Assembly: GCA_041697335.1 (NCBI GenBank)
Contig: JBGUGD010000018.1
Span: 1-28,930, forward strand
Reading direction: 5' to 3'
Source: Vampirovibrionaceae bacterium NZW_1234
Lineage (GTDB): Bacteria > Cyanobacteriota > Vampirovibrionia > Vampirovibrionales > JAGQHJ01
DNA: 28,930 nucleotides
Made by a program: the position numbers and the translations under genes. Below the pieces are notes generated by a model. That model was not told the origin of the DNA. It saw nothing but the letters and a program-made list of their open reading frames with translations, and made no database searches. How positions within the stretch are numbered: position 1 is the first letter of the stretch; every line of letters starts with the position of its first letter. Positions 88 to 28,930 of the stretch are shown piece after piece.

Positions 88-335
88 TTTTTATTTTGTC
101 TGGTGTTTCCGAAACGTTTCCAAATGCGGTACCCGGTGGGAGTGGTTACCTTGTTCCAACCCTGTGAGGTGCTGTTCTTTTCCACTCGAACACGCCCGTG
201 GGATAAGCTATCCCCATACCGACCCGAAACCCCGATTGGGATCACGCTCTGGAATTCCGATTTGATTTTTCGTCGTATTATTGATATGACATTGCCAAGT
301 ATTAGCGTTTTGTTGTCATTAGAGTACTCGATTTG

Positions 336-1724
336 ATGAAAGTTGACGTTGAAAAAGCAGATCAGCATACTGCACAGATTTTATTAGAAATTGATTCCGA
401 ACATGCCAGTATGGAATACAACAAGGCCTGCAAGCGCCTTGGCCAGCGGTTGAATATCCCTGGCTTCCGTCGTGGCAAGGCCCCTCGCCAAGTGGTGGAA
501 AAAGCCATCGGAGTCGATCGCATTAAGCAGGAAGTTTTGGATCGGGTTCTGCCCCACGCCTTTGCCGATGCCATCAGTGAGCATCAATTGGACGTTGTAG
601 CCCCGCCGCAAATCGAGAACTTTACCTTTGAAATGGGCCAGCCCCTGACGGTTAAGGCCTTGGTTGAGCTGCGTCCCGAAGTTTCACTGGCCGATTTGTC
701 CAGTTTGAAAGTGGATGTGCCGGCATACGAAGCGCCCGCCGATTCCTTCGAGAACGAAATCCGTCAGATCCGTGAACGGATGACCACCCTGGAAACCATT
801 ATCGATCGTCCCGCCGAAGCCGGTGACATTGTGAACATCGACTTCACCGGCGCCATCAATGGCGAATTGATCCGGGGCGGTGCGGCCAAGAACTACCAGT
901 TGGACCTGGCCAACAACAACTTCATCGAAGGGTTTGCCGCCCAGATTCCGGGGCATAAAATCGGGGAAGAGTTCACCATTAACGTGAGCTTCCCCAGCGA
1001 TTACCACGACCAGTCCCTGGCGGGTAAACCGGCGGACTTCATTGTGAAAATCAATGAAATCAAGAAGAAAGTGGTTCCCGAGCTGGATGACGAATTGGCC
1101 CGCAAATGCGGTCCTTACGAAAACGTGCAGCAACTTCAGGACGAAGTGCGCAGGTTTATCGAAAAAACCGTGGAAAACGAGAATGTCTTCCGCAAGCAAA
1201 AAGCGGTTATCGACAAAGTGGTTGACGACTCTAAAATGGACGTCCCCGATGCGATGATTAACCGTGAAGCTCGCATTCTTCTGGAAGAGATTCAAACCGG
1301 CTTTAAAAACCAAGGCATGAACTGGGAGCAGTTTGTGGACTCCCAAGGTCACGAGAAAATCTGGCAGAACCTGCGTCAGGAGGCCTTGCGTCGGATTCAG
1401 ACCAGTCTGGTATTTGGTGCCATTGCCAAGCAGGAAGCCATTACGGTGACCGAAGACGAATTCCAGCAGGAAGTGGCCGCCTTGGCCAAAGATCGCAATC
1501 TCGACGAAAAGCAAGCCATGAAGCAACTGGCCAACTCGCCGGAAGCAGCTCAGGCTCTTGCTGACGAGATCCTAAGCCGTAAGATTGTTGAGTTTCTGAC
1601 TTCCCGGGCAGAATTTAACTTTGTGAAAGATGCCCCCCAGGGTGAAGGCAAAGCGCTCCACGAGGCCGTGGCCGTTGCCAGTTCCTTGGAGAAAGAAGAA
1701 TACGAAGTTCTGGCAGAAGACTAG
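336..1724 (+). CDS. tig: Trigger factor (ribosome-associated chaperone/PPIase)
   Basis: Ribosome-binding signature [14 protein letters not shown]-like middle domain ([10 protein letters not shown]...FIEGF...FPSDYH...LAGK), and position directly upstream of clpP-clpX. ATG at 336 chosen over TTG at 333. Confidence 0.97.
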
Positions 1725-1783
1725 TAGGCAGTAGTAATCAATCATTTCATTGTTTTCCAGCGATAGAAGAGGGTTTTTACACC

Positions 1784-2464
1784 ATGAGCGATATTATCAG
1801 CACCAGCAAGCACAATCCCATTGTGAACATGTCTGCGTCCAATGGCAGTGGCATCATTAATCCGGCCTCTTTTGTGCCTATCGTTATCGAGCAATCCAGC
1901 CGTGGGGAGCGGTCTTTTGACATCTTCTCCCGTTTGCTGAGAGAGCGGATTGTCTTTTTGGGCACCCCGGTAGATGACATGGTGGCCAACACCATCGTGG
2001 CTCAGTTGCTGTTGTTGGATTCCGAAAACCCGGAAAAAGACATTATGCTCTACATCAACAGCCCGGGTGGTAGTGTCACGGCTGGTTTCGCTATTTACGA
2101 CACCATGCAGCACATCCGTGCCGATGTGGCCACCATCTGTTTGGGTCAAGCCGCCAGTATGGGTGCTTTCCTGCTGGCTGCCGGTGCGCCTGGGAAACGG
2201 ATGGCCCTGCCTCTGTCTCGAGTCCTGATTCACCAACCCCTGGGCGGTGCTCAAGGTCAAGCGACCGACATCGAGATTCAGGCCGCGGAAATCAACCGTA
2301 TGAAGAAAATTATCAATGAATTGCTGGCGCATCACACCGGCCAGTCCATTAAAAAGATTGAGAAAGACACGGATCGCGACTACATTATGTCCGCTGAGGA
2401 AGCAGTGGCCTATGGTATGGTCGATAAAGTGATTACCCGTGTTGAAGAGGCCAAAGAAGACTAG
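1784..2464 (+). CDS. clpP: ATP-dependent Clp protease proteolytic subunit
   Basis: [28 protein letters not shown], catalytic Ser (AASMG), His (IHQP) and Asp (DRD). N-terminal extension of about 30 aa, so the start could be a downstream ATG. Confidence 0.98.
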
Positions 2465-2585
2465 TATCATAAAGTAAGTAACAATTTTGCATCAGCTCGC
2501 TGCGATCGCTAAAGATCTGCATCGAATTGATCGAGGTAAATCGAAGGGTCTTCTCTTCATAGGCCTTCAAGCGGAGGAATACACC

Positions 2586-3893
<1,308 letters not shown>

Positions 3894-4900: not shown

Positions 4901-6811
4901 ATGTCGACGTTAGGTAACATTTTAAACCTATCTCTACGCCAAAACGTAGACTCACCGTTTCTGGACTCCCTTACGGGAGTGGGTCCGCCTTCGGATTGGC
5001 TGCTGTCTGTTGCCTCTCTGGATTGGCGCAATCCTTCGAATGCTGATTTTTCACAAGATGCCTTTGATTTTCGAGGTTCTTCTTTGGATCCCAGCTGGTC
5101 ACCGCCGATGGGGCCCAACCCGCGATTTGAGCAAAATCGAGGTGTGTCAATGGCTTCCCCGGGATGGAACGCATTCAGAGCCAATGGTTCCAGTGGAAGC
5201 TTCCTGTCGAATCTGCTGGCTCCTTTGGATAACCTGCCCAATCCCAATGGGCGGGTGATGTCTCCCAATATGGATTTTCGTCCGGGTGCGGATCCGGCCC
5301 CATCTGTCTTGAACGGGGCGCTGGGATTTACAGTCCCAGTAGGAACACCCACAAGGTTGGTTTTGGGTTCGGGAATACAACCCGATCGGTCCATGATGGG
5401 TCTTGCATGGCAATCTCCCACCCTACAGAGTATCGGGAGTCCCCTACAGTCGTTATGGAGCCCTCGTGGGGCCGGATTGATGAATGGCCCTGCACAGGGG
5501 GGGATGCCCCTGGCGAGAACCACCGGAAGCCTGAGCCCTTTTACTGACGTCGGTGTGCCTCAGCCGTCACACGCCCGACGAGAGCCCTCCCCATGGTCAT
5601 GGCGCTTTGAACCGGATGCATCCGCTATCATTCTGGCTTTGGCCTTCAAGGCGAAGAAGAAACAAGAGTCTGCCTCTCTGAGCGAGAGTGGGGCAACCGA
5701 CCTGAAACTTCCCTCCAACAGTACGGGCCGGTCCGGTGAGGGACCCTCGGCAAAGGAAACCGTCTCCTCAGTGAGCACCACCTCTCAGACCCTGACCACT
5801 GCGGAAAGTACCCCGGATCTTTCCACGAAAAGCCAGGCCACCCCAGAGACCAAGACGACAACGAAAATGGTTCAGCTGACCGCGACCACACAGGACCCAA
5901 AAGAAGATGAGAAGACTGAGAAAGCGAAGGCCGATTCGGTTCAAAAGCCGGTAGAATTGCCACCGATGGCAGTCGGCTTGCGGACGGCACCGGAGACCAA
6001 GGAGACCACTTCGTCGAAAGAGGCCACCCCAAGTGTCACCCCTGTCAATCAAAAGCCGATGGAGGTCACTCCTCCCATGGCTGTCGGTTTGATTGCTTTG
6101 CCCACAACCCCCACGGTTCAAGACCCGTCTGCCACAGAGGACGTGCACCACACCTCCTCCCAAGACCGGCAACGGATCCAAGGAACCGTTTACCGATCCG
6201 TGGAGCAGGGCGGGTGGTTAGTCCGGGATGCTCGAACCCGACAGGAATTTCTTCTGGTATTTGATGAGGCCATGCCCCGTCCCTCCTGGCTAAATGATGG
6301 GGTCGAGGTCGAGGTTCTCGGTCAGCCCCGCCCGAATATGCCCACAGTGTATATGCTGGGCACACCCCTGGTGGTGGACGACATCCAGCTGATCCGCACT
6401 CCCACCCAACCCCGAGGCGACTACGATACCGATGCTGTTCTGAGTGTTATTTCCCGAGCGTCGGGGCGCACGGCAGCCAACCCCTCGGTGACCCGAGAAC
6501 AGCTACAACGCTTCTTGCGAAATGCGATGCGAGGATCTCCCGATGCGCAGATCGCTGCCATGCTCCTGGAGAACTTTGACACCCTGATGTCTCCCTATCG
6601 CTATGGCTACCTGGCGGAGCAGGGGGTGGTTCAAGTGAACGTGAACGGGCAACAGTCTGAGTCCTCTTACCAGGAACGGTATTACTATGGTGAAACCTAT
6701 TATAACGGGGCTTTGGATGCCCGGACGATTCAGAGAGTCGCATCCTTGGATGGCAACGGTAAAACCTTCAGTGCGAATGATTTGGGGCGTCTTCGAAAAA
6801 TGCAAGCTTGA
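4901..6811 (+). CDS. Hypothetical, largely disordered protein with a DUF5818/OB-fold-like domain and an EF-hand-like C-terminus
   Basis: 636-aa ORF: P/G/S/M-rich N-terminus, T/S/P/E/K linker with duplicated QKP.E..PPMAVGL, a GTVYRSVEQGGWLV...GVEVEVLG..RPNMPT.YM.GTPL.V domain, and terminal DGNGKTFSANDL. Confidence 0.7.
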   Translation: MSTLGNILNLSLRQNVDSPFLDSLTGVGPPSDWLLSVASLDWRNPSNADFSQDAFDFRGSSLDPSWSPPMGPNPRFEQNRGVSMASPGWNAFRANGSSGSFLSNLLAPLDNLPNPNGRVMSPNMDFRPGADPAPSVLNGALGFTVPVGTPTRLVLGSGIQPDRSMMGLAWQSPTLQSIGSPLQSLWSPRGAGLMNGPAQGGMPLARTTGSLSPFTDVGVPQPSHARREPSPWSWRFEPDASAIILALAFKAKKKQESASLSESGATDLKLPSNSTGRSGEGPSAKETVSSVSTTSQTLTTAESTPDLSTKSQATPETKTTTKMVQLTATTQDPKEDEKTEKAKADSVQKPVELPPMAVGLRTAPETKETTSSKEATPSVTPVNQKPMEVTPPMAVGLIALPTTPTVQDPSATEDVHHTSSQDRQRIQGTVYRSVEQGGWLVRDARTRQEFLLVFDEAMPRPSWLNDGVEVEVLGQPRPNMPTVYMLGTPLVVDDIQLIRTPTQPRGDYDTDAVLSVISRASGRTAANPSVTREQLQRFLRNAMRGSPDAQIAAMLLENFDTLMSPYRYGYLAEQGVVQVNVNGQQSESSYQERYYYGETYYNGALDARTIQRVASLDGNGKTFSANDLGRLRKMQA

Positions 6812-12168: not shown

Positions 12169-13320
12169 TTACTGGGCGTATAAAATCTTACGGACCTGCT
12201 CTTTGAGAATTTGATTAAAGGGCCGTGTTGCCCAGGCTTGGCCTTGGGCTTCCAACACATCGGTGTTGTGACCTGACTCGCGAAGGACTTCCTGATAGAC
12301 CTTCTGATACTCTTGCGGATCCCGATGCAGGAGCAACGCCATCCAGTAAAGTTTGCCTGCAGGAGAGGCATCGTCAAGGGCCCCCAAAATCTCTTCCTTA
12401 GGCAGGTGCTCCTGCTTCATACGCAGGTAGGCTCTGTAGGCAGGGTGCATGCTGTTGGGTCCTTTTTGCCATTCCGTGGGTTCCATGGCGTATTCGGCTG
12501 CTTTGAGGAGTTTGGTGCGGGCTTCTTCTGCACTTAAGGGCAAATAGGTTGGCCAGGAAAGGTAAAGTGGCCGATAGTGATAGTCGAAGCCTTCGTAGCC
12601 TTGTCGGTATTCTCGGAGGGTCACCATAATTAAGCCAAATTGTTCATTAATCAGTGTCTTAATGGGCGTAATTAAAGCAGTACCTTCGTCATAGGGTAGG
12701 TGAAAGGTTAGAAACGGAATGGGCTCTACTTCAGGGCGAAATGCAAAATCAAAGCCAACGGGCTTATAGACCACATGCTGACTGCCGCTTGGGGTTTCCA
12801 GCATTTCGGGCTGTACAAGGCTGTTGATGGCCACCTGCCAGCGATCATTGGGGGAGAGGGCAAAGGTATATTCCTGAAGTGTCGGATAATTTTCGGCCAG
12901 CTCCTCCAGTGTCCCTGTCAACAGTTGCCCGGCTTCGTTCTTGATGGCGGGTGGTGCAGGTGTTAGCTCCAGGGCTTTCCAGGGAACCACATGCAGTTCG
13001 TTCGCTTTGGTAACCTTTTGTTGCAGGGTTTTACACGCTTTTTCTCCGGCAGATTGAGACTCGGTAGGTTGGATTTGTTTCACGTCCAACGGCTCCCACT
13101 GGTCTTTGCCGTAAAGTCGGACTTCACAGAAAAAGAGCCCGCTGCCATCGCCAATCCAGCTTTCGACCACCCCAAGCTTATCGAGGTTGGTGGACACTCC
13201 GAGAATAGTCATATCGGTTTGCATAAGTGCGTGAACGGGAGTCGATAAGCCCAACAGCATGGCCAGTGCCGGAAGCCACAGGCCAAGTGCAAGCGGCCGC
13301 AAGGGGAGGGGGATGCGCAT
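12169..13320 (-). CDS. Exported hypothetical protein, DUF2259-like N-terminal region plus a helical C-terminal domain
   Basis: Signal peptide ending VHA. ILGVSTN....GVVESWIGDGSG.F and later GYEG.D resemble DUF2259 secreted proteins. AGAAGG precedes ATG 13320. Confidence 0.65.
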   Translation of the reverse strand: MRIPLPLRPLALGLWLPALAMLLGLSTPVHALMQTDMTILGVSTNLDKLGVVESWIGDGSGLFFCEVRLYGKDQWEPLDVKQIQPTESQSAGEKACKTLQQKVTKANELHVVPWKALELTPAPPAIKNEAGQLLTGTLEELAENYPTLQEYTFALSPNDRWQVAINSLVQPEMLETPSGSQHVVYKPVGFDFAFRPEVEPIPFLTFHLPYDEGTALITPIKTLINEQFGLIMVTLREYRQGYEGFDYHYRPLYLSWPTYLPLSAEEARTKLLKAAEYAMEPTEWQKGPNSMHPAYRAYLRMKQEHLPKEEILGALDDASPAGKLYWMALLLHRDPQEYQKVYQEVLRESGHNTDVLEAQGQAWATRPFNQILKEQVRKILYAQ

Positions 13321-13683
13321 GGGAAACACCTTCTAATTATCGTGGACGTTATAGGCTAATCATACGCAACTGTGATAAGCCTTGGCAAGGCATGGGCCTT
13401 TCTCACGTAATGAAGGTGTATACACGCGGTATGCTGGGAAATTTTACCCAGAGGAATTTAGGAACAATTCCTCATGCACGCCCCGGCTGGATTGGCTTTA
13501 ATAGGAGCATCTTCTGGAAGAGAACTTTCCAAGACACCGTGTTAGAAAACACAGAATTCCCCCCAACCAAACTTTGTGAAAGTTCTCTTCTTTTTTTCCT
13601 TTACCCGTTCCTTATTCCCTCCCCTTTGTTGTTAGAGAGTAAAAACACACTGACTGATTCGTGATATTTGACGTGAAGAGCAC

Positions 13684-13848: not shown

Positions 13849-14391
13849 ATGGCGAGGCGTTATAAGGAGGTGGCTCAGGTCTGCGGCCTGATGACCGGCC
13901 CGGATTTACTGTGGGAATTTTTGTCGAGCTTGGAATTGTTACGCTATGGCATTGATGAGGTTAGTGTTTTAATTGCCGAAGAGTCGTGGGAGCTAAAGTA
14001 TGCCGCAGTAGAGCCGCAAGATATTTTGGATGATGACGCTCCTGTTCTGTTGGCTTCGACCGTGTATGACAGTATTGACATGATGGATAGCCTGATGGCA
14101 TTTGAGCCGGGTATGTTGGTTTCAGGTCCCATTCTTGGTGTGATTGCCGGGGGAATTGTGGGCTCATACGCCAATAATTTTGTAGCTGCGCTATCCGGGT
14201 TGGGAATTCCTGAAGATTATGCCCATCAATACGAAGCCACGTTAAAGCAGACGGATGACTGCCTGTTGATTGTCCATGTGCTGGGAGGGGAGACCCATCG
14301 CTTGCCGAAGACGTATGGTTTATTTCAAACCAAAGGGTGTCCCAACACACAGATCTTCTCCCCGGCCACCACGCGTCGTTATTCGCGATAA
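13849..14391 (+). CDS. General stress protein-like (YflT/17M-related) hypothetical protein
   Basis: EVSVLI, Gly-rich PGMLVSGPILGVIAGGIVG and AALSGLGIPEDYAHQYE...LLIVHV are typical of this family. GAGG upstream. Confidence 0.7.
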   Translation: MARRYKEVAQVCGLMTGPDLLWEFLSSLELLRYGIDEVSVLIAEESWELKYAAVEPQDILDDDAPVLLASTVYDSIDMMDSLMAFEPGMLVSGPILGVIAGGIVGSYANNFVAALSGLGIPEDYAHQYEATLKQTDDCLLIVHVLGGETHRLPKTYGLFQTKGCPNTQIFSPATTRRYSR

Positions 14392-14408: not shown

Positions 14409-15158
14409 TTAGTCGATCGGAAAATCAAAATACGTACTGGGGAAGGGCTCGTTCTCTAAGGTGTAATGCCACCACTCCTGAGGCAGATTTTTAAACCCAT
14501 GGTGTTGCATTATGGTTTTCAGCAAAGCCCGGTTGGCTTTGATTATGGGAGGGAGTTCCGTGGTATCGGTATGGGCCAGGGGATCAAAGCAATCAAAGGA
14601 CGTCCCCATGTCCAGGCTGTTGTCGGGAATAGGATAATGGCGGCTCCGGCAATCCCGAGGCACGGTTTCGGAAGGATCTGGGAGAAAGGGCTTTGGATAG
14701 GGTACCAGGGTTAGATCGATCGTACTGCCGCGACTGTGCCCGGAACGTTCGGCAATATAGCCTTCCTTGAACAAATCACCTTTGGCGACTCGGGGATAGA
14801 ACCCTGCCAATCCTGTTGTGTCGGAAGCCGCCCAGGCAACAAAGTCCAGAACGGCGCGTTTTGGACGGTAACAGTCATACACTTTCAAACCTAATCCAAG
14901 ACTTTGCAATTCCTGTTGGGCATCTGCCAGGGCTTGGGCTGCAGGTCGAGTGAGAATACAAATGGGACGAGTATAGCCCTCAATGGGGCGACCCACAAAA
15001 TTATGTGCCGAGCTATAGCGCATGTCGATGAGAATAGATGGTGCAATTGACTCCAGATTGACGAATTCCGGCGGCCGCTGTGCCTTGGCAGCAAGAGGTG
15101 CGAGCAGCAAAATCAGAATAAACATACTGATGAAGCGCGGCATCTGTGAGGTTCGCAT
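14409..15158 (-). CDS. ddpX: D-Ala-D-Ala dipeptidase (M15D, VanX/DdpX family) with signal peptide
   Basis: YDCYRP, SGHSRGSTIDLT (SxHxxGxxxD), DMGTSFD, EWWHY; N-terminal MPRFISMFILILLLAPLAAKA. Confidence 0.92.
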   Translation of the reverse strand: MRTSQMPRFISMFILILLLAPLAAKAQRPPEFVNLESIAPSILIDMRYSSAHNFVGRPIEGYTRPICILTRPAAQALADAQQELQSLGLGLKVYDCYRPKRAVLDFVAWAASDTTGLAGFYPRVAKGDLFKEGYIAERSGHSRGSTIDLTLVPYPKPFLPDPSETVPRDCRSRHYPIPDNSLDMGTSFDCFDPLAHTDTTELPPIIKANRALLKTIMQHHGFKNLPQEWWHYTLENEPFPSTYFDFPID

Positions 15159-18335: not shown

Positions 18336-19202
18336 ATGCAGTACAAATGGGAACCTATGGTGAGCTTGAAATCCCTCGGCAAATGCACCGACGAGGGTAA
18401 GGCGGAATTGTATGAAGCCTGGGAGCAAATGCGTGACTTAACGGTTTCGAGCCCTTCTATTGCAGGCAGTGGTATGCAGAAACCCGGCGGGTTTTGGTTC
18501 AAGTTGTCTCAAATGCTTAGTGGAACCGGCTTCTTACCGGCCCTGGGGAATCATTCAATTCAGATACCGGGAACCTCCTATGCGGATCCCATCTCGGGCG
18601 GGACGGGTTTGGCACCAGGCGGACAAGCTCCGTTTGGTTTAGGGCCGTTTTCGCAGTTTAGCGGTTTTCCGACGGGAGGGGCCGCTGGATTGGATACGTC
18701 CTCCATCTTCGCGAGTATGGGAATCGGAAATGCCGGCCTGGGTGTTCTTGGCATTGGCGATCCGGCTTATCCGATGGCTTTTGGCACTATTGGCGGGGCT
18801 GCTGCACCCATGGGAACGGGGACCTCATTGGGCGATCCGGGGCAGGCGCCATCATCTTTAGTGGGGGCATCAGGTTTTGGCCGAAACAAGATATTACCGG
18901 CCATGGGAATTTTGAGTGGCATTGGCAGTATTATGACGAACGTGGCTCCCTTGATGGGGACCTTCGGGATGGCTGGACTCGCAACAGGAGCTGTCCTTCA
19001 GGGCTTGACAGCACCGGTTCTGGCTAAATACGAAAAGGCCAGCAATCGCCTGGTTGTGAGCGCCGATATGGTCCTAGGAACCAAGATTCGCAACATCGAA
19101 ACCGTTGTGAAGCAGATGGAAGCCCAGGAAGATATTATTAAAAAGCTTCTAAAAGAACAGAACGAGACCAATTCCAAAGCTCTACAGGATTTAGGCGGCT
19201 AA
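18336..19202 (+). CDS. Hypothetical Gly-rich protein with a hydrophobic helical segment and C-terminal coiled coil
   Basis: 288-aa ORF: G/A/P/F-rich core, ILPAMGILSGIGSIM...GMAGLATGAVLQGL segment, heptad-like IRNIETVVKQMEAQEDIIKKLLKEQ. Start codon uncertain. Confidence 0.7.
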   Translation: MQYKWEPMVSLKSLGKCTDEGKAELYEAWEQMRDLTVSSPSIAGSGMQKPGGFWFKLSQMLSGTGFLPALGNHSIQIPGTSYADPISGGTGLAPGGQAPFGLGPFSQFSGFPTGGAAGLDTSSIFASMGIGNAGLGVLGIGDPAYPMAFGTIGGAAAPMGTGTSLGDPGQAPSSLVGASGFGRNKILPAMGILSGIGSIMTNVAPLMGTFGMAGLATGAVLQGLTAPVLAKYEKASNRLVVSADMVLGTKIRNIETVVKQMEAQEDIIKKLLKEQNETNSKALQDLGG

Positions 19203-19216
19203 AACGCTGGCATTTC

Positions 19217-20053
19217 CTAAAATGCGCTGAAGGGGTTGAAGCCGGGATTGGCACCCATGCCCCATCCTTGAGCAGCACCTTGCATGGCGTTGGCCATCAT
19301 TGGGCCAAACTGGCCGGAGAAGAATGCTTCAGGCGATGGTGTGGGCATATAAGGCATCATGGGAGCTGCATAGGGGGAGGCATCATTCATTTCGAAAGGT
19401 ACGCCGTTAAAGGATCCCATCGCATTTCTGGATTGGTAGTTGTATCCCCATGAAACCCCGTTCGGGCCTTCTTGAACCCAAGGGCCGTTCATCGCAGGTG
19501 CAGCCGACGTTGCCATCTGACCAAACGGATTGAAAGGTGATCCACCGTAGGAAGCCCGAGGTGCGCCAAAAGAGGGGCCTAAGCCACCGGCATACATATC
19601 CATCGGAGATTGCTGGTTGAAGGCAGGCGGCATCATTCTGGGTGCTGCAGCCTGGAAGGGATTCAGCTCTTGAAATGGATTCATGGGGTTGTTTTGGAAG
19701 GGATCAAAATTACCTGAGAATGCGGGGCCTTGGAATGCGCCAAAACGGCGAGCAAGGGAACCCTGAACAGTAGCCCCGATACTTTGCGCCATCGGTCCAT
19801 TACCAGGGAAAAGCGCTTCAAGTGGGACACCTGCGATATGGCCGCTAGCACCCAACATGCTTTGGTAGGGATTCGTGGGCTCGGCCAATCCAGCTGTGAC
19901 CAGGGCATCTTGTAAGTCGGCATTGCTGTAGCCGGTAATGGCTTCTGATTGTGCAAATCTCTGGAAAGATGCAGGATCGGGTATATTAGCCAGTGTGGCA
20001 TTGAACATGTTGCTGGGAGCACCCATTGCCATTGGCGGTCTTAAACCCATCAT
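19217..20053 (-). CDS. Hypothetical prion-like low-complexity protein (M/P/G/A/F/N/Q-rich) with NPF motifs
   Basis: 278 aa from ATG 20053 (AAAGG upstream). No Lys or Cys. Four NPF and one DPF tripeptides. Confidence 0.7.
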   Translation of the reverse strand: MMGLRPPMAMGAPSNMFNATLANIPDPASFQRFAQSEAITGYSNADLQDALVTAGLAEPTNPYQSMLGASGHIAGVPLEALFPGNGPMAQSIGATVQGSLARRFGAFQGPAFSGNFDPFQNNPMNPFQELNPFQAAAPRMMPPAFNQQSPMDMYAGGLGPSFGAPRASYGGSPFNPFGQMATSAAPAMNGPWVQEGPNGVSWGYNYQSRNAMGSFNGVPFEMNDASPYAAPMMPYMPTPSPEAFFSGQFGPMMANAMQGAAQGWGMGANPGFNPFSAF

Positions 20054-20206
20054 AGAACACACACCTTTCACATTTTTGAGGAACACACACTATATCTTAT
20101 TTAAATAAAAACAATATCTTCTTTGAAATTGCGTTTTGGAGATGCCGATGTAACAAAAGCGATACACTGGCTAAAACCGTGGCCGGGCGTGTAAGTTTAT
20201 GCACGC

Positions 20207-21346
20207 TTAAGACCCAAGGCGAGTTAAGTGGGTCTGGGGAAAATAATAGTGGAGAATGGCATCGTATTTTCGCCCTTTTCGGGCTTGTCCGGCAGCACCC
20301 CACTGGCAAAGGCCCACGCCGTGACCGGCGCCTCGGGAATGGATTTCTATATAATCCATGCCCTTGGCGTGAATGTCGAATTTTGTCCCGGGTGCTTTGT
20401 CCCAGCCAAACTTCTGACCCAGGCGCATCCAGAAGGCGTAGCTCCGTGTGGGGGCGGCGTTGCCCATGGAAATCCAGAGAGGCCGATGGCCATCATCCCA
20501 CGCTGTGATTTGGGGGAGCTTGGGGCCGAAGCTCTGGAAAAACAGCGGACGAGGGATCTGCGTCACGGTCGTGCTCCAAAAGGGCGAAGCTTTGCAATAA
20601 TCACACTTTACGGCGGTAAGGTAAGGTGTATGATGACCAGAGAAGAAACTGCCGGAACTGGTGTGGCCGGCACATGTACTGTGGTAAAGGGCTGAAATGG
20701 GACGGCCTTCATAAGTGAGCACCTGATTCCAGACAGACAAGACGGCTTTCTGGACCTCTGGGCGAAGTGGCCCCATGCCTAAAAACGATTCATCCTGGGT
20801 AGTGTCACTTAAAGGGGTATTGAGTTTCATTTTCGCCAGTCGGCTTTGGGTTAACACCGCCTGTGCTTTCAAGGCTTCGAGGGGCCAACCGGGGGGCGTT
20901 TCACTGCTGACAACGCTACTGACATAGAGGGGAGTGTTCAGTGTGTTTGTAATGACCAGTTGACGCTTTGTGTCCCGATGTATCGCCAATCTGCCATAAT
21001 AGCGGCGAGGCGCTCCGCCAGGCAAACTCAGTCTGAGACCATCTTCAGGCCCTGTATTCAGAACCAGCCGGGTGTAAGTGGCAGATTTTGCGGACAGGGC
21101 CTGACTTGGCTTCAAGCGAAGTCGGTCTTGATGAGGCGCAATCGTATAGCGGCCACATCGCCTAGTGATTGTGTGGTGCGGGTTGGCCAAGGTGAAGCAT
21201 CCATCAAGGATAAGGCTGGAGACCGAAGGCTGAGCCTCAAAGAGACGCACCGTAATCTCAGGGGGCAGTGCTCCCCAGACAATTCCAGACATCTGTGAAA
21301 GCAATACAAGGGCTGTAGCCGGAAGCCAAAGCATAGAGCGTCTCAT
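20207..21346 (-). CDS. SpoIID/LytB domain protein (putative lytic transglycosylase), exported
   Basis: RRYYGRL, YVSSVVSSETPPGWPLEALKAQAV, YHSTCAGHT, GAGHGVGLCQWGA, ILHYYFP. Signal peptide from ATG 21346, which overlaps the upstream gene's TGA (ATGA). Confidence 0.9.
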   Translation of the reverse strand: MRRSMLWLPATALVLLSQMSGIVWGALPPEITVRLFEAQPSVSSLILDGCFTLANPHHTITRRCGRYTIAPHQDRLRLKPSQALSAKSATYTRLVLNTGPEDGLRLSLPGGAPRRYYGRLAIHRDTKRQLVITNTLNTPLYVSSVVSSETPPGWPLEALKAQAVLTQSRLAKMKLNTPLSDTTQDESFLGMGPLRPEVQKAVLSVWNQVLTYEGRPISALYHSTCAGHTSSGSFFSGHHTPYLTAVKCDYCKASPFWSTTVTQIPRPLFFQSFGPKLPQITAWDDGHRPLWISMGNAAPTRSYAFWMRLGQKFGWDKAPGTKFDIHAKGMDYIEIHSRGAGHGVGLCQWGAAGQARKGRKYDAILHYYFPQTHLTRLGS

Positions 21347-22260
21347 AAAGAAAAATCCCACGAGCGAGAGTGTAAGGCTTGGCGCAATAGAGGGACAGCC
21401 TGATCCTGGCTGGTCCCCTGGGGGGCCCGAAGGCAAATGGCGTATCGGGGCTGGTGATAGGGGAAAAAACCCGAGATCCAGGATTGATAGCGATACCCAT
21501 GGTTTGTCGTACCGGTCTTAATGGCCAAGTGGAAATGATTCTTCGGATCCAGATGCTTACCAGTGCCCGAACGAGAGGCCAGATGCATGCCATTTGCCAG
21601 GAATCCCCAGGTCTCAGGGTGGATGACAGGGCTGTCAGAAGGAACCTGCCAGTGAGGGAGTTTTCCCTGGGTAGCAATCAGGCCGCTGAGGCGGAGCAAC
21701 TGGAACAGCGAGGATTGTAAATCGGGGGCAAGGCCGAGGATATAGTCCTGAACGGGTGATTGGGGGTGCTGAGGAAAAGCCCAAGGAAGATCGGGCAGAT
21801 TGGCTTGACGGGTTGGTGAGGCCAAGCCCAAGGCGCGTGCAAAACGCAGGAGTTCATGGATGTGAATAAGCGGTGTCAAATGAGCAAAGTAGCCATTGCA
21901 CGACTGGCCGAGCGCCTGAATAAGGGTAACTCGCCCATGAGGGGCTGAGCAGCGATACACATGGTTCTGAATCCGGAAGATTCCGGTGCATTCAAATTCC
22001 TTGTCGGGAGAAATCAGATGATGTTCAAGGACCATGGCCGTTGTGACGAGTTTCATCAGCGATCCGGGGGGACCGCTGGGGGGTATTGAGCCCGGATGAA
22101 ATAGGATGTTCGAAGTGTGTAAGTCCATCCATGCCCAGGGGACTTTTACGGGTGCAGGTTTTCCCAGGCTGGGCTCGGATAATACCCATGGCAACAGAAG
22201 AAGGCCCTTTACAAAGGCTCTTCGTGACAGTTGTGGTAACGGTAACAAATCGCAATCCAA
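21343..22260 (-). CDS. Penicillin-binding protein, transpeptidase domain only, with twin-arginine signal
   Basis: SxxK (PGSLMK), SxN (QSCNGYF), KTG (IKTGT), plus SWISGFFPY..PRYA typical of class B PBP transpeptidase domains. N-terminal SRRAFVK. TTG start. Confidence 0.85.
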   Translation of the reverse strand: MDCDLLPLPQLSRRAFVKGLLLLPWVLSEPSLGKPAPVKVPWAWMDLHTSNILFHPGSIPPSGPPGSLMKLVTTAMVLEHHLISPDKEFECTGIFRIQNHVYRCSAPHGRVTLIQALGQSCNGYFAHLTPLIHIHELLRFARALGLASPTRQANLPDLPWAFPQHPQSPVQDYILGLAPDLQSSLFQLLRLSGLIATQGKLPHWQVPSDSPVIHPETWGFLANGMHLASRSGTGKHLDPKNHFHLAIKTGTTNHGYRYQSWISGFFPYHQPRYAICLRAPQGTSQDQAVPLLRQALHSRSWDFSL

Positions 22261-22398
22261 TGCGTCAACCTGCTGTGTTTGCTGTATGGTGAAACTCTAA
22301 GAGAGGTTGATGATCATTGTACGGGTAGGATGTTCCTGGTGAAACCTGTTCCTTTTGGGAAGTCGTTTTTACACTCCATGTCACGATGCGTCGTGACC

Positions 22399-22980
22399 AT
22401 GGGATTCTCCTTGGTGCTGCTAGGGCTGATGTTCTCAATTTTCACGATGGCTTCGGCCCAGGCCATGACGACGTTGCCCCAGGTGGTTCGGATGACCATG
22501 GCGCAGTATTTCAGCCCCACACACACGCAGGACTGGAATCGATGGGCGGCGGGTATTCCGGTAAGCCCGATGTATAAGCAGCCCGCGGGTCTCTTTGTGA
22601 CTTTGAGCGTTAACGGCAGATCCCGAGCATGTTGGGGAACCCTCTTTCCCGAGCATGCCAATCAGGTCCAGGCCACCGTATTTAATACCCTGGGTGCCTT
22701 GACCAAGGAGTATCGCTTCCCTCCCATCCGCCCAGACGAATGGGAGCACCTGAAGCCCCAGGTCACTGTGGTTAAAGGCATCGAGCCTGTGTCATCACTG
22801 GCTGCCGTCAACCCCTTGCGTGATGGCTTGATGGTTCGTTCGGGCGGAAAGTCCGGTATTATTCTTCCCGGGGAAGCCCGGAATGCTCATTATCAATTGG
22901 TGCAATGCAAGTTGAAAGCCGGTATCCAGCCCGGGGAACGCTATCAGATCTATAGGATTCGGACCGATGTTTATCGCTAA
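22399..22980 (+). CDS. AMMECR1 domain protein with N-terminal signal peptide
   Basis: GLFVTL...RACWGT (cf. LRGCIG), EYRFPPI.PDE (cf. DPRF.P), GLMVRSGGKSGIILP, KLKAGI. Hydrophobic leader MGFSLVLLGLMFSIFTMASAQA. Start could be 22378 or 22330. Confidence 0.8.
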   Translation: MGFSLVLLGLMFSIFTMASAQAMTTLPQVVRMTMAQYFSPTHTQDWNRWAAGIPVSPMYKQPAGLFVTLSVNGRSRACWGTLFPEHANQVQATVFNTLGALTKEYRFPPIRPDEWEHLKPQVTVVKGIEPVSSLAAVNPLRDGLMVRSGGKSGIILPGEARNAHYQLVQCKLKAGIQPGERYQIYRIRTDVYR

Positions 22981-25900
22981 GCTCAAGCAGTCCTGGACAT
23001 GGGTATTGGCCCTGGCTGCCATGGTGACATTATTGGCCTTTGCAGTTGGGTTGGAACGCCCGGTTGGGGCCCTGGAAGGGCGCATCGCTATTGAGCAGCA
23101 AGGATTTAATCTGGCCAGCTATGACATTCGGGGACAGAAGGTTTATGCCCTGGCCATTGGCCCTCGAGGCGATCGTAACGTCCTGGAACGTGGGGTCTGG
23201 GTCAATCCCGACGGAAGCTTTCGTATTGAACGGCTTCCTGTAGGCGAATATGCCCTACGTGTCAGAGCACCGGGCTTTGCCACCGAGAATAAGTATGGGC
23301 TATATGTGGATGAGGGCCGCATCCATACCGTAGCGCCCATTCGCCTTCACCTGTTGGCTCCGTCGGTGAACTTGGCTTCCAATACCCGGGTTTTTACAAC
23401 CAAAGAGCAGCCGTCGTTCTGGATTAATGCCTCCGGGGCAAACCGAGCGGTGGTGAAACTGTATCGCCGCGACGCCCTACCGATGATTCAAAATTCAGGA
23501 ACACTGGCGGCAAGTCAAAATCTGTATTTCAGTACCAGTTTGAATCTCTACAAGCCCACTGGGGCTATAAATACAGCCTTTATCAATCAGACACCCATTG
23601 AGGTGTTTGAGCGCAAGCTGGAAACCGATTTTGAAGATTGGGCCAGAACGCCTATGAAGCTGGCCAAGCCCTTGCCCGTAGGCGACTACTTCGCCGTGGC
23701 CGAGGTCTATAACTTCCAAAGCCAGCAGGATTGGAATGCCATGTGGTTTTCCGTCACCGATGTGGGCCTGGTCATCAAACATGCCCCGGAAAAAGCGGTG
23801 GTCAGAGCTGTTGACTTGAATACGTTGAAGCCTCGTCCCGGTGTCAATGTCGCGTTATACGCCTCTGACTTTCAGACTCCGGTGGCTCCAGCGGCGCAAA
23901 CGGATGCCAATGGCCTGGTCGAATTCCCCGTGCCGAAAGCCTACGGCGAAAAGAGTTACACAAACTTTCTGGCGGTAGGGACCCATGGCCAAGAGCGGGC
24001 CTATGGTGGAATCTCTTTTTATCGAGCTCATTCAGACAAGTATCGGACTTATTTTTACACCGAGCGCCCTGTATATCGGTTAGGGCAAACCGTGTACTTC
24101 AAAGGCATGGTCCGGGTTCTCGATCCCGATGGTCTGCATTTGCCTGAAGGCAGCCTGCCTGTTCATGTTGCTGTTGAAGACCCGGATGGGACGAAAATCT
24201 GGGAAGGCCCTTTTCAGACCAATGGCCATGGCACCTTTAACGGGACCTTTACGCTTCCCGAGGAAGCCAAGACGGGGGCCTACCAAGTCTCCATGAGGTA
24301 TCCGGACAATACGTATTCCTATGCCTGGTTTGAGGTGGCCCAATACCGTAAACCCGAGTATCAGGTGGAGGTCATTCCTATACAGTCCCGAGCTGTGGTG
24401 GGTGACACGGTCAAAGCGCGGGTTCGGGCCACGTATTATTTTGGTGCTCCCGTGACCCATGCCAAAGTCCACTACTCCGTCTATGAATCGGTGGATTGGG
24501 CGGGTCGTTCTCGATTGATGAATCGCCCCGAGTATGAATCCTACTATGATTCCTGGGATCCGGATATGGACTCCGGTTCCTATGACGGCGATCTGGTTAC
24601 TGAGGGTTATATCCAGACCGATGAAAATGGCGAGGCCATTGTTGAATTCAGGACCCACCCGCCACAAAAACCAGCCAATGGGCCCTATGGGACTGATTTT
24701 TATGACAAACGCTACAAAATCCAGGCCGATGTCACCGACTTGAGCCGTATGACGGTTGTGGGAAGCGGAACATTACCTGTGTCCATGGCCAATTTTGCGG
24801 TTTTTATCAAGCCGAGTTCCGAAGTGGTCCGTCAAGGCGAAGCCATTTCTGCCGATGTGATGGCCGTCGATTATGAGGGCAGGCCTGTAGCCAACCAAAC
24901 CATTGACGTGAGCCTGGTCCGTTGGATATGGGATATCCGGCGGGGGGAATATCGTAGCAAGCAGGTTCCGCAGACGGCCTCCGTCAAAACCGATGAAAGT
25001 GGCAAGGCCCACCTGACCCTGCAAACCGATTCGGCTGGTATGACCGACGTCTACTACCTGACGGCAGTTGCTCAGGATCAAAAAGGGCGGCCGGTGTTTG
25101 ACGAACATTCGGTCTGGATTGCCAGCCCCAATCAGCCCTATCTTTTGTCTCCCAAAGAAGCCCAACAGCAAGCCCTTTCCGTGCGCCTCGACAAGTCGGT
25201 TTATCAACCCGGCGAAACTGCCAAGATTATGGTGGCTGCCCCGGTTACAGGTAAAGAGGGAACCCAGGCCCTGTTAGCCATTGAGGGTACCCGCTTGCAT
25301 GAGTATCGGTTAATCGACCTGGATGCTTCGGCCAAATTGGTGGAAGTTCCTTTAAAGGCCGAGTATGAGCCCAATGTCAATGTCACGGTAACCTATGTGG
25401 GCCAGAAACATCAGTTTTATACCCAGTCTCACATGATTAAAGTAACGCCCCACAAGCACTTTCTCCAGCTTGCAGTCCAAACGGACAAACCCAAGTATCA
25501 TCCCGGGGACGAGGTGACCTTGCGTGTGCATGCACAATATCCGGACGGCAAACCAGCGGCAAAGACCGAGCTTTCGATTGGTGTAGTGGATGAGAGCATC
25601 TATGCCATTCGGGCTGATCAGAGCGAGAATATTCAGCAATTCTTTTACGATGAGCGCGCAAATTGGGTGACGACAACCAGCTCATTCCCGGAAGAATATT
25701 CCGGCGGGCCGGATAAGATTGAGCCCCGCATGCGCAAGGACTTCCGGGATGTTGCTGCCTGGTTCCCCACGGCCATGACCGATGAGAACGGAGATGCCAT
25801 AGTGACATTCAGGGTTCCGGATAACCTGACCACCTGGCGAGCCACGGTCCGTGGTATTACTCAGGCTACCGATGTCGGCTCGGCCATTGGGAGCTTCATC

Positions 25901-27958
25901 GCAACCCAGGATCTGATTGTTCGTCTGGCCTTGCCCCGCTTCTTCACGCAGTGGGATGAAGGCGTCGTGACCGCCATTGTTCATAACTACACGGAGCATC
26001 CTCAGGACATTCAAGTGGCGCTCTCCATGCCGTCCCTGCTTACGACCAAACATCGCCTGGTACAAACCCTGAATGTGAAGCCCGAAGGTGCTCAGCGAAT
26101 TACATGGCCGGTTTCAGTCCAGACACCTGGGCAGGCTACGTTTCAGGTCAAGGCCATCGGGCAGACCGCCGGAGATGCCTTGGAGAAAACCATTCCGATT
26201 TTGCCGTTGGGGATGCCTGTTGAGAAGATCCAGAGCGGTACAATGACCCTGGACGCCACTTCTGTGTCTCTCCCGGTAACTTTACCTCCAGGGGTGGCCA
26301 TGGAAACCGTCAGGTACCATATTGCTTTGGCGGCGTCGACCCTGGGGCCCGTTATTGGGAGCTTTGATGCACTCATTGATTATCCTTACGGTTGTACAGA
26401 GCAGACCATGAGTCGGCTAATACCATCCATTCTGGCTATCCGACTAAATCAAACCTTGAATGTGCCTTTAAGCGATTCGGCCCGGGCCCGTTTTGAGGAC
26501 GTGTATCGTAAGGGCATAGCCCGCCTCCGTGAGATGCATCATGGTGACGGTGGCTGGGGCTGGTGGGAATTTGATGAAAGCCAGGCTCAGATGACGGCCT
26601 ATGTTCTCGAAGGGCTGATGATGCTTCGCCAGGCTGGCTATGCGGTTGACGATGATCTGGTGTCATCCGGTCGGGAGTGGCTTCGAAAGGCGATGCCGGA
26701 ATTGCAGAGGCAACTGTCTGATCCCAAGCTGGCCAAGGAAGGGGTGGCGGATGCCCGGATTGATTTGGCGATGATGGCCCATGCTGCAAGCCTTCATGGA
26801 GATAAGGTTTCCGATAAGCTCTCGTCTTGGGCGAAATCCCGCGTCTCCTCGGCATCACCCGAAGAACTCGCGTACTGGGCATTGGCCTTCCACAAGGCGA
26901 ATCAATCTGCCTTGGCCAAACTGGCGCTATCGGAACTGATGAGTCTGGCGCATCAAAGCGGGGAATTGATGGATTGGGACAATACACCCCAGATGAGGCG
27001 CCGTTTAGAGCAACGTCAGCAGGAATATACCTATCGATTTACCGGTGTCGAGCGAACCGCGCTGGCCCTCAGGGCTTTGTTGGCGGTTAGTCCGGATAAT
27101 ACGGGTGCCATTGAAGCCACTCGACGTTGGTTATTGACGCAACGGGGCAAGGATGGCTGGGATAACACGAAAACCACCTCCCAGGTCCTTCAGGCCTTAA
27201 TGGCGGAAGCCATTCACACGGGTGGTTCGGCCAAACCCGAGTTTCTGGCGACACTTCGTTTAATGAATGACGTTCTGGCCGAGCAATCGTTTAATGCGGC
27301 CAATGCCTATGGCCCCGAAATTCTCTTCAAGCCCAATCTGGCCCAGATTGTAGGGCAGGAGCTAACCCTGCTGAAGGAAGGTATTGGGCGTTTGTTCTAT
27401 GCCAGTGTGCTCAGTTATATGCACCCACTCAAGCCTGGCGATACGGTGAAGGAACCATCCCGGCCGGAAGGCTTGCGCATCTATCGGGAGTTCTTCCGTC
27501 TTGAAGCTCAAGCGATGACCAGTGACGGTAAGATTCATTTTCGCACCAAACCCTTGGGCAACCAGGCGCTTAAAGCCGGGGAAACGGTGTTGATGAAGGT
27601 CTTTATCGAATCCCCTATCACCTTGCCCTATATTCTGTTGGAAGCAGCCTTGCCCAGTGGGGGTGAGGTCATCATGAACGATCCCCGGTTGAACACTCTG
27701 GATGAGGAGCAATCCCCCGAAGCGGATTCCGATATTACCGGCGATTGGGGGACCTGGTGGTGGGAACACCAGGATGTCCTTGATGATCGGGTGGTGTTCT
27801 TTGCAACACAACTCCCTGCAGGCAAGACCAGTTTCCACACCATGATTCGCATGGAGATGCCGGGTACGTTTCAGATGAATCCGGCTCGTCTGGAAGGGAT
27901 GTACACACGAAACATCCGTGCTTACTCTGACCTGAATCACCTTCGGGTTACCGAGTAG
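22967..27958 (+). CDS. Bacterial alpha-2-macroglobulin family protein with thioester motif
   Basis: MG2 motif YTERPVYRLGQTVYF, YYFGAPV, LDKSVYQPGE, VVDESIY, RKDF...AWFP, PDNLTTWR, thioester YPYGCTEQ (CTEQ at 26393-26404), DGGWGWW, C-terminal PA.LEGMY. Overlaps the upstream gene by 14 nt. Confidence 0.95.
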   Translation: MFIAKLKQSWTWVLALAAMVTLLAFAVGLERPVGALEGRIAIEQQGFNLASYDIRGQKVYALAIGPRGDRNVLERGVWVNPDGSFRIERLPVGEYALRVRAPGFATENKYGLYVDEGRIHTVAPIRLHLLAPSVNLASNTRVFTTKEQPSFWINASGANRAVVKLYRRDALPMIQNSGTLAASQNLYFSTSLNLYKPTGAINTAFINQTPIEVFERKLETDFEDWARTPMKLAKPLPVGDYFAVAEVYNFQSQQDWNAMWFSVTDVGLVIKHAPEKAVVRAVDLNTLKPRPGVNVALYASDFQTPVAPAAQTDANGLVEFPVPKAYGEKSYTNFLAVGTHGQERAYGGISFYRAHSDKYRTYFYTERPVYRLGQTVYFKGMVRVLDPDGLHLPEGSLPVHVAVEDPDGTKIWEGPFQTNGHGTFNGTFTLPEEAKTGAYQVSMRYPDNTYSYAWFEVAQYRKPEYQVEVIPIQSRAVVGDTVKARVRATYYFGAPVTHAKVHYSVYESVDWAGRSRLMNRPEYESYYDSWDPDMDSGSYDGDLVTEGYIQTDENGEAIVEFRTHPPQKPANGPYGTDFYDKRYKIQADVTDLSRMTVVGSGTLPVSMANFAVFIKPSSEVVRQGEAISADVMAVDYEGRPVANQTIDVSLVRWIWDIRRGEYRSKQVPQTASVKTDESGKAHLTLQTDSAGMTDVYYLTAVAQDQKGRPVFDEHSVWIASPNQPYLLSPKEAQQQALSVRLDKSVYQPGETAKIMVAAPVTGKEGTQALLAIEGTRLHEYRLIDLDASAKLVEVPLKAEYEPNVNVTVTYVGQKHQFYTQSHMIKVTPHKHFLQLAVQTDKPKYHPGDEVTLRVHAQYPDGKPAAKTELSIGVVDESIYAIRADQSENIQQFFYDERANWVTTTSSFPEEYSGGPDKIEPRMRKDFRDVAAWFPTAMTDENGDAIVTFRVPDNLTTWRATVRGITQATDVGSAIGSFIATQDLIVRLALPRFFTQWDEGVVTAIVHNYTEHPQDIQVALSMPSLLTTKHRLVQTLNVKPEGAQRITWPVSVQTPGQATFQVKAIGQTAGDALEKTIPILPLGMPVEKIQSGTMTLDATSVSLPVTLPPGVAMETVRYHIALAASTLGPVIGSFDALIDYPYGCTEQTMSRLIPSILAIRLNQTLNVPLSDSARARFEDVYRKGIARLREMHHGDGGWGWWEFDESQAQMTAYVLEGLMMLRQAGYAVDDDLVSSGREWLRKAMPELQRQLSDPKLAKEGVADARIDLAMMAHAASLHGDKVSDKLSSWAKSRVSSASPEELAYWALAFHKANQSALAKLALSELMSLAHQSGELMDWDNTPQMRRRLEQRQQEYTYRFTGVERTALALRALLAVSPDNTGAIEATRRWLLTQRGKDGWDNTKTTSQVLQALMAEAIHTGGSAKPEFLATLRLMNDVLAEQSFNAANAYGPEILFKPNLAQIVGQELTLLKEGIGRLFYASVLSYMHPLKPGDTVKEPSRPEGLRIYREFFRLEAQAMTSDGKIHFRTKPLGNQALKAGETVLMKVFIESPITLPYILLEAALPSGGEVIMNDPRLNTLDEEQSPEADSDITGDWGTWWWEHQDVLDDRVVFFATQLPAGKTSFHTMIRMEMPGTFQMNPARLEGMYTRNIRAYSDLNHLRVTE

Positions 27959-27975
27959 GCAAGTCGGGAGGAACG

Positions 27976-28692
27976 ATGGTCCGGCTTTCAGTGTTGTTCT
28001 GGCTTGGTCTTCCCGTGGCCCTCAGTGTCCTGTTGTTTTTCGGGCAGCCCTTTTCCCGGCCGGTGGCCATGAAATCTCTATCCCTTGATCCGTTGACCCC
28101 ATCCCAGCGCCTGAATCTTCAGGAAGCAGCCCAACGTCTGGATGGGGTGGTCTTAGCGCCCCGACAACAATTTTCCTTTAACCGCCAGGTCGGCCCCAGG
28201 ACTCGTCATCGGGGGTTTGCCGCATCGCCCTCCTACGTGGAAGCCGCCAGCCCGGACAGCATTGGTGGTGGAATTTGCATCCTATCTTCTCTTCTTTACC
28301 AGGCGGCTTTGGAGCATGGGATGCGTATTCATCAGCGTGTCCCCCACCTTCGCCCGATGAGAACCATTTTGCCGGGCCTGGACGCCACGGTGTGGTATGG
28401 TCAAGCCGACCTTGTCTTTGAAAACACGACATCCGTCCCCATCCAGCTCAAGACGCAGGTACAGCAGCAAACTTTGTCTGTCGGGTTTGTCGCTCGTCAG
28501 GCTCTCCCTGCTACGCCTGTGACTCGGCGGGCGCATCAGCTGTCGCCGGAGCAACTTCAGGTAACGGTGTTTCGGCGAATTGATGATCGAGATGTGCTGG
28601 TATCCAGAGATTTATACCGCCTGACGTCGCATCGCCATTTTTTGGGTCACCAGCGCGTAAACAGCGACAATAACAATGAGCGCCCCCAGTAG
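27976..28692 (+). CDS. VanW family protein
   Basis: NL..AA.RLDGVVLAPRQQFSFNRQVGPRT...GF, GGGIC.LSS.LY, PGLDATV.YG..DL.FEN. N-terminal anchor; GGAGG RBS. Confidence 0.9.
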   Translation: MVRLSVLFWLGLPVALSVLLFFGQPFSRPVAMKSLSLDPLTPSQRLNLQEAAQRLDGVVLAPRQQFSFNRQVGPRTRHRGFAASPSYVEAASPDSIGGGICILSSLLYQAALEHGMRIHQRVPHLRPMRTILPGLDATVWYGQADLVFENTTSVPIQLKTQVQQQTLSVGFVARQALPATPVTRRAHQLSPEQLQVTVFRRIDDRDVLVSRDLYRLTSHRHFLGHQRVNSDNNNERPQ

Positions 28693-28930
28693 GGTCAGCT
28701 TGTCGCTTCGGCTTGCTTCGTTGGCCCAATCCAACAGGCCTGCACCTAGAAGGCTGGTCTGGATGATGACGAAGGGCATGCTTAGAAGTGGTGGATGTTC
28801 CAGAGAGGCCTTGTAAGAGGGCAATGCGGTCAGGCCGGTGCCTGCAACAAGACTGGCCAAAAGGAAGCTTGCTACCACTTCAGATTGAAATAGGGCACTC
28901 AGGGTGATTCCGAGAATGAGGGAGCCACCG
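28612..28930 (-). CDS. Partial (3' end) multi-pass membrane protein, starts beyond the window
   Basis: Frame is open to the window edge: GGSLILGITLSALFQSEVVASFLLASLVAGTG...LTLLGALIVIVAVYALVTQKMAMRRQAV*, with several hydrophobic segments. Confidence 0.6.
   Translation of the reverse strand, partial: GGSLILGITLSALFQSEVVASFLLASLVAGTGLTALPSYKASLEHPPLLSMPFVIIQTSLLGAGLLDWANEASRSDKLTLLGALIVIVAVYALVTQKMAMRRQAV

Follow-up and report, generated by a model that had tools for sequence, protein, structure and literature searches.

Bacterial alpha-2-macroglobulins (A2Ms) have been sorted into two types (PMC3735191, PMC5764988). Type I, represented by yfhM-pbpC and Salmonella Sa-A2M, combines a lipobox and a CxEQ thioester with a neighbouring bifunctional penicillin-binding protein (PBP), PBP1C. 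Type II, represented by yfaA-yfaT-yfaS-yfaQ-yfaP and by magABCDEF of P. aeruginosa, comprises about six envelope genes, and its A2M has neither lipobox nor thioester. Processing of MagD requires magB and magC (PMC5764988). YfaQ has already been reported to consist of transpeptidase-like and SpoIID-like domains, and deletion of yfaQ to give phenotypes resembling wall remodelling (bioRxiv 2025.02.11.637708). Here we describe a six-gene locus on a contig of 28,930 nucleotides (JBGUGD010000018.1, assembly GCA_041697335.1) from Vampirovibrionaceae bacterium NZW_1234. This whole stretch is referred to as the window and is a complete contig (C1) of genome G000. The genes encode a SpoIID-type protein, a PBP, an AMMECR1 protein, an A2M, a VanW protein and a membrane protein.

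The locus mixes features of both types and, going by the traits that define them, belongs to neither. With type I it shares the CxEQ thioester and a neighbouring penicillin-binding domain; it differs in that the A2M has no lipobox and falls outside the YfhM group, and in that the partner consists of a single class-B-like transpeptidase domain and lacks the glycosyltransferase part. With type II it shares a set of about six envelope genes, an A2M without a lipobox, a YfaQ/MagE homologue, divided here between the PBP and SpoIID genes, and a membrane protein and a small putative cysteine enzyme upstream of the A2M. In contrast to type II, the A2M keeps its thioester, and VanW, AMMECR1 and a protein of pyrophosphatase fold are added. 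The original prediction, made from the sequence alone, had called this a third arrangement. That holds insofar as neither published type fits; independence from yfa/mag does not, since the PBP and SpoIID are homologous to two halves of YfaQ and make the locus a cousin of that operon. We searched the openly searchable literature for bacterial macroglobulins together with SpoIID, Melainabacteria, VanW or AMMECR1 and found no description of the six-gene unit, in keeping with the prediction that it was undescribed. We conclude that the locus is real and conserved, an apparently unpublished variant of the bacterial macroglobulin envelope loci.

Composition and conservation of the locus

Five ORFs of the window gave Pfam matches above the curated cut-offs, covering all the domains originally named (A2M/MG2, SpoIID, Transpeptidase, AMMECR1 and VanW; Table 1). 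The ATG of SpoIID at 21346 overlaps the PBP stop (ATGA, 21343-21346), AMMECR1 and A2M overlap by 14 nt, and A2M and VanW are 17 nt apart. The divergent gap, predicted at about 140 bp, measures 138 bp with the AMMECR1 start at ATG 22399 and 117 bp with ATG 22378. ORFs, domains and junctions agree with the first description of the five genes. Within the gap, the minus strand bears one sigma-70-like site (22343-22316); a promoter scan of the gap region returned 5 sites against 1.9 +/- 1.6 in shuffles, not clearly above the shuffles. An export signal or anchor had been proposed for all five proteins. The most hydrophobic 13-residue stretch indeed lies within the first 47 residues of each, while the type of signal, like export throughout this work, was judged by hydropathy together with conserved patterns. 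The catalytic motifs are intact across all enzymes of the locus, and searches of the contigs of this genome found one copy each of AMMECR1, VanW and A2M.

The sixth gene, which the original count of five had overlooked, converges on VanW with an 81-nt overlap and runs off the end of the window; another contig carries the 5' part at its end (G000:C22:30494-31612). All six genes have the same order and orientation in 7/7 relatives fetched with full flanks, and chance clustering was rejected on this ground. The A2M itself was found in 8/40 same-order relatives. From a scan of species genomes, the best 80 of 313 related stretches were used and yielded 66 loci chosen by A2M similarity, most of them named as Vampirovibrionales or Obscuribacterales, which are non-photosynthetic relatives of cyanobacteria; six are contigs already among the same-order relatives. 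Where the contig left room, 61/62 loci had AMMECR1 upstream of the A2M, 57/58 had the PBP (not found in L075) and 55/57 had VanW. Flanks of 9 kb on either side were available for 37 loci; 28 of these contained all five genes and 27 all six, the six lying within about 10 kb of the A2M. The predicted linkage is supported in many genomes, and the genes make up a single unit. In a sample of 301 genomes of the phylum, the A2M was found in 66 and the membrane gene in 18, of which 17 were among the 66; in the remaining one (G047) the membrane gene lies with PBP and AMMECR1 at the end of a contig. A search of 132 family f4 genomes found neither the A2M nor the membrane gene.

The divergent layout is real in the window, but it is lineage-specific. 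Among 20 A2M loci compared in the wider phylum, three (L086, L088, L091) run in one direction as membrane gene, PBP, SpoIID, AMMECR1, A2M and VanW, and two (L087, L089) have the same string with insertions. AMMECR1-A2M-VanW is retained in L090, L093, L095 and L096, with the remaining genes clustered elsewhere, and SpoIID and AMMECR1 are fused in L097 and L098. The long A2Ms (about 1900-2100 aa) of L092 and L099-L103 adjoin none of the locus partners. The complete genome G295 keeps all six genes, unlinked. We also scanned metagenomes with divergent exported AMMECR1 proteins as queries, which gave 69 loci, 42 of them with an A2M match. These include PBP-SpoIID-AMMECR1-A2M strings (L115, L128), a permuted but co-directional set with a short membrane gene of 337 aa (L133) and an A2M::VanW fusion in a cluster named Bacillota (L123).

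Table 1. Genes and intergenic region of the macroglobulin locus in the window
Feature	Position	Strand	Remarks
SpoIID gene	20207-21346	(-)	379 aa; Pfam SpoIID E 4.5e-12
PBP gene (Transpeptidase)	21343-22260	(-)	305 aa; Pfam E 6e-18
Divergent intergenic gap	22261-22398		presumed two-way promoter region
AMMECR1 gene	22399-22980	(+)	alternative start 22378; Pfam E 2.3e-25
A2M gene	22967-27958	(+)	1663 aa; MG2, bMG3, A2M_BRD, A2M, TED, bMG10
VanW gene	27976-28692	(+)	238 aa; Pfam E 6.2e-38
Sixth gene, 3' end	28612-28930	(-)	membrane protein of ~480 aa; no Pfam family

Relationship of PBP and SpoIID to YfaQ

Profile and model comparisons indicate that PBP and SpoIID together correspond to E. coli YfaQ/MagE split into two genes. 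The PBP profile aligned with the N-terminal domain of the YfaQ family (hhalign prob 97.1, E 5e-11) and the SpoIID profile with its middle (prob 95.7, E 9e-9). Residues 20-247 of a YfaQ model adopt a PBP/beta-lactamase fold (Z 15.4, rmsd 3.3, 201 aligned). E. coli YfaQ has the motifs SLWK, SCG and KTW, whereas the PBP of the window has the canonical set, and the two proteins of the locus may serve as intact-motif stand-ins for the poorly understood YfaQ. A search for longer fused forms of the PBP, restricted to 763-2175 aa, a range outside which YfaQ falls, gave one unrelated match. In E. coli YfaQ itself (L010:6149-7798; alignment A6), the C-terminal DUF2300 part contains HEYLH, invariant in 38/38 homologues. 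This motif is of the zincin-like HExxH form, and YfaQ may have a third, metallopeptidase-like domain that is lacking in the window.

The PBP is a stand-alone penicillin-binding transpeptidase domain with SxxK in 54/54, SCN in 53/54 and KTG in 54/54 homologues; its motifs would not tell a transpeptidase from a carboxy- or endopeptidase. A Cys-Cys-His-Cys pattern, conserved in 54/54, agrees with the site for zinc in PBP3 and SpoVD of C. difficile, both reported as zinc-binding class B PBPs (PMC9334274). These proteins share the Cys-Cys-His and the Cys of SCN and are the best solved-structure matches; the PBP of the locus differs in having no pedestal domain or membrane anchor and, in this order, a twin-arginine-like signal. 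This RRxF-like signal was seen in 52/54 sequences, being absent from L087 and L089, and would fit export in folded form. In the alignment (A1), some ORFs are extended upstream into non-coding sequence, with the matched columns unaffected. SpoIID appears to be a SpoIID/LytB-type lytic transglycosylase with a Sec-like signal. Its Glu149, a Glu in 42/42 alignment rows, lines up with Glu101 in the SpoIID of C. difficile (5txu), which we take to be the catalytic residue.

In the genome that carries the window, tblastn with YfaA/MagB, YfaT/MagC and YfaP/MagA-F gave no match at E 1e-3, using single-sequence queries from which remote homologues could escape. With single-sequence phmmer queries, the YfaA, YfaT and YfaP types were found only in the E. 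coli, Deinococcus and Meiothermus loci. In all three, YfaT, which has an NlpC/P60 match, precedes the A2M.

A2M and VanW

The thioester motif of the A2M is GCTEQ (residues 1142-1146), and GCxEQ is present in 61/61 long homologues. No lipobox was found: the N-terminus in the window has no Cys, and 0/17 scorable homologues have one. The protein carries an extra N-terminal CarboxypepD_reg-like domain. In a FastTree phylogeny of 29 A2Ms over 1361 columns, into which YfaS was entered by its N-terminal ORF alone, 18 A2Ms of the window type formed one group (split support 0.96), set apart from YfhM, YfaS, Deinococcus and long cyanobacterial forms, with weak deeper relations. Several observations concern A2Ms at large. 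Among solved structures, CD109 and A2M of human gave the A2M profile E-values of 1e-44 to 2e-41, as good as or better than that of E. coli YfhM (5e-41). Two long cyanobacterial A2Ms of the YfhM group (L101:7230-12932, L103:7240-12936) have no CxEQ at the aligned position, and that of L103 lies beside a PBP1C (Transgly+Transpeptidase+BiPBP_C). On Deinococcus and Meiothermus plasmids, DUF1175 (YfaT) accompanies a thioester-intact A2M and a small gene (L106:7734-13718, L107:7945-13758); the gene after the A2M in L106 has a weak DUF1570 match. A thioester in a yfa-type context blurs the two-type scheme.

VanW was counted among the poorly understood families in the original prediction, which is out of date, because its members have been reported to be L,D-transpeptidases (PMC11348318). 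The VanW of the locus is an L,D-transpeptidase candidate with an N-terminal anchor. Its Cys101, His124 and Asp136 are invariant (C-x22-H-x11-D in 54/54) and presumably correspond to the catalytic triad of that study. C. difficile Ldt4 and Ldt5 likewise have a VanW domain with invariant Cys, His and Asp and an N-terminal anchor, whereas the protein described here has no PG4 or G5 domains, is coupled or fused to an A2M and occurs in a diderm lineage. A vancomycin-resistance cluster was rejected: the VanW scores far below the NCBIfam vanW cut-offs, and a VanX-like gene was not found in related loci.

AMMECR1

The AMMECR1 domain is complete and matches 1zq7, 1vaj and 1wsc. The motif RACWG includes the conserved cysteine of the family, with R[AG]CxG in 60/60 homologues; [DE]xR[YFW] is present in 57/60 and strict DxR in 14/60. 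AMMECR1 shares the full domain and conserved Cys motif with AmmeMemoRadiSam system protein A, and differs from it in a predicted signal peptide, the RACWG and ExR variants and its context. Against TIGR04335, the model of that protein, it scored 67 bits, below the cut-off of 99, and no Memo or radical-SAM gene was found in the flanks inspected, where the neighbours are PBP and A2M. An AmmeMemoRadiSam operon was rejected. Among the best 150 representatives, the N-terminus was hydrophobic in 48/56 short W-motif and 39/55 other short AMMECR1 homologues, and so exported AMMECR1 proteins form a broad subfamily. One exported homologue is named Armatimonadota, and no AMMECR1 was found in plasmids or viral contigs. 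At L121, L132 and L136, lone exported AMMECR1 genes stand amid housekeeping genes. Predicted as a complex with SpoIID and the thioester domain of the A2M, AMMECR1 scored 0.00, which we counted neither for nor against an interaction.

The sixth protein

The sixth protein has about 480 aa and about 17 helices. It matched no Pfam family (35 members searched) and no PDB sequence, and an ESM Atlas search gave nothing above 0.9 and a low-confidence model. A model of its homologue in L021 (pLDDT 90) resembled membrane pyrophosphatases with Z 23.5 (5gpj; rmsd 3.7 A, 429 residues) and 22.7, the next fold scoring 9.3. Basic residues mark alternate loops as cytoplasmic, giving a predicted N-out topology which, like the fold, would be shared with H+/Na+ membrane pyrophosphatases. 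Those enzymes are longer (about 730 aa) and have canonical cytoplasmic acidic catalytic motifs. These motifs are not conserved here, the sole conserved acidic residue of the inner side being D141 (28/35), and an active pyrophosphatase was rejected. The best-conserved loop residues (R271, Q308, N317, N322, H325, H375 and E377) are predicted to lie at the opposite, outer face. The protein would belong to a membrane-protein family that so far has no name and in which the pyrophosphatase fold has been repurposed.

Discussion

The make-up of YfaQ and the function of VanW are already known; the function of the locus itself we infer. On balance, the homology, motifs, linkage, fusions and shared occurrence of the genes, with the analogy to known systems, lead us to think that the six genes specify one periplasmic, inner-membrane-based protease trap and wall-remodelling system built round the thioester A2M. 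The A2M would trap intruding proteases covalently once its bait is cleaved. The pyrophosphatase-fold protein could be a non-catalytic platform in the inner membrane, acting as holder of the lipobox-less A2M or as a sensor for it, in the role of MagB toward MagD. SpoIID would cut glycan strands, the lone zinc-type PBP would trim or cross-link D-Ala peptides during local reworking of the wall, and VanW would form 3-3 cross-links, or tether proteins, from tetrapeptides. The exported AMMECR1 may be a cysteine enzyme in the slot of the NlpC/P60-like YfaT/MagC, directly upstream of the A2M, where it would either ready wall peptides for SpoIID or process the A2M. SpoIID enzymes require peptide-free glycan and no amidase is present in the locus, which makes AMMECR1 a candidate for the peptide-removal step; the SpoIID::AMMECR1 fusions fit an action ahead of SpoIID. 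The platform and the cysteine-enzyme role of AMMECR1 are the weakest steps. The defence-plus-repair idea of type I would apply here too, and the breach response first proposed for this locus can be seen as borrowed from it. A penicillin-binding domain is found in all three A2M contexts, which points to wall remodelling as their common theme.

Several observations weigh against such a single system. The linkage counts are not independent, because A2M similarity was the basis on which the loci were chosen and the genomes are related to one another. The A2M of L053 has neither AMMECR1 nor VanW adjacent, and that of L032 has no VanW. SpoIID is missing from 8/46 full upstream flanks (a close orthologue, one of them broken, lies elsewhere in 5/5 genomes tested), the membrane gene is missing from 6/40 full flanks, and in G041 it was not found. 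Exported AMMECR1 has no partner in the long flanks of L114, L121, L132 and L136, and in L137, L143 and L174 it accompanies PBP-SpoIID with no A2M nearby. Only 3/7 foreign VanW proteins were reported active in the family-defining study (PMC11348318), and in the proteins of this locus the catalytic Cys is followed by L/V/C/I/M. Finally, the equivalences with MagB and YfaT would follow from gene position alone, no homology having been found.

The A2M might instead be mainly a covalent device for attachment to the envelope or a surface, joined to peptidoglycan or a foreign surface through its thioester or by the action of VanW. The enzymes would then open and reseal the wall so that the A2M could be placed or exported. 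The A2M::VanW fusion is what this explanation would lead one to expect, L,D-transpeptidases are reported to tether proteins to the wall (PMC12274547), SpoIID and PBP pairs would suit local wall opening, and the A2M profile scores CD109 and human A2M as high as YfhM. We nevertheless consider it unlikely, as both bacterial A2M types studied are reported to trap proteases (PMC3735191, PMC5764988), the A2M_BRD domain is present, and no conserved secretion-system genes were found beside the locus in the flanks inspected.

That the cluster breakpoints vary by lineage, that the genes are fully scattered in G295 and that AMMECR1 stands alone on some contigs would also be explained if two loosely related modules (PBP-SpoIID-membrane gene and AMMECR1-A2M-VanW) were merely co-regulated under envelope stress, with no shared complex or pathway. 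This seems to us quite improbable: the SpoIID::AMMECR1 fusions bridge the two halves, and the breakpoints differ such that every gene is coupled to another somewhere, while scattered genomes retain the full set. In a nucleotide-related function unconnected with wall chemistry, the exported AMMECR1 would retain the modification of nucleic acids or nucleotides predicted for its family, and the membrane protein would transport for it a substrate that contains phosphate. This draws on the RAGNYA-fold prediction of RNA base modification (PMC2034487) and on a membrane protein apparently derived from a pyrophosphate-handling fold, and is hardly credible given the signal-like N-termini of the short W-motif homologues, the inspected flanks, in which no Memo or radical-SAM gene was found, and conserved polar residues that are predicted to face outward, not the cytoplasm.

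A bolder form of the protease-trap and wall-remodelling system is that the locus represents a third, widely spread class of bacterial thioester-protein systems, in which a membrane receptor of pyrophosphatase fold, AMMECR1 (an exported cysteine enzyme activating the A2M or cutting wall peptides) and VanW make up a complement-like pathway. We put this forward tentatively, as a possibility that falls well short of even chances; if true, a substrate would be assigned to an AMMECR1 protein for the first time, and the membrane-pyrophosphatase fold would have gained a new use. AMMECR1 is a family without a known reaction, and since a soluble, exported member here stands beside defined candidate substrates, a small assay panel could assign its function.

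Other features of the window

Outside the locus, the window has an ordinary tig-clpP-clpX cluster at 333-3893 (+). A VanX-like D-Ala-D-Ala dipeptidase (Peptidase_M15; 14409-15158, (-)) lies 5 kb from the locus and was not found in related loci. Five ORFs gave no Pfam or NCBIfam match: 4901-6811 (+), 12169-13329 (-), 13849-14391 (+), 18336-19202 (+) and 19217-20086 (-). A 50% paralogue of the ORF at 18336-19202 is present on contig C10.

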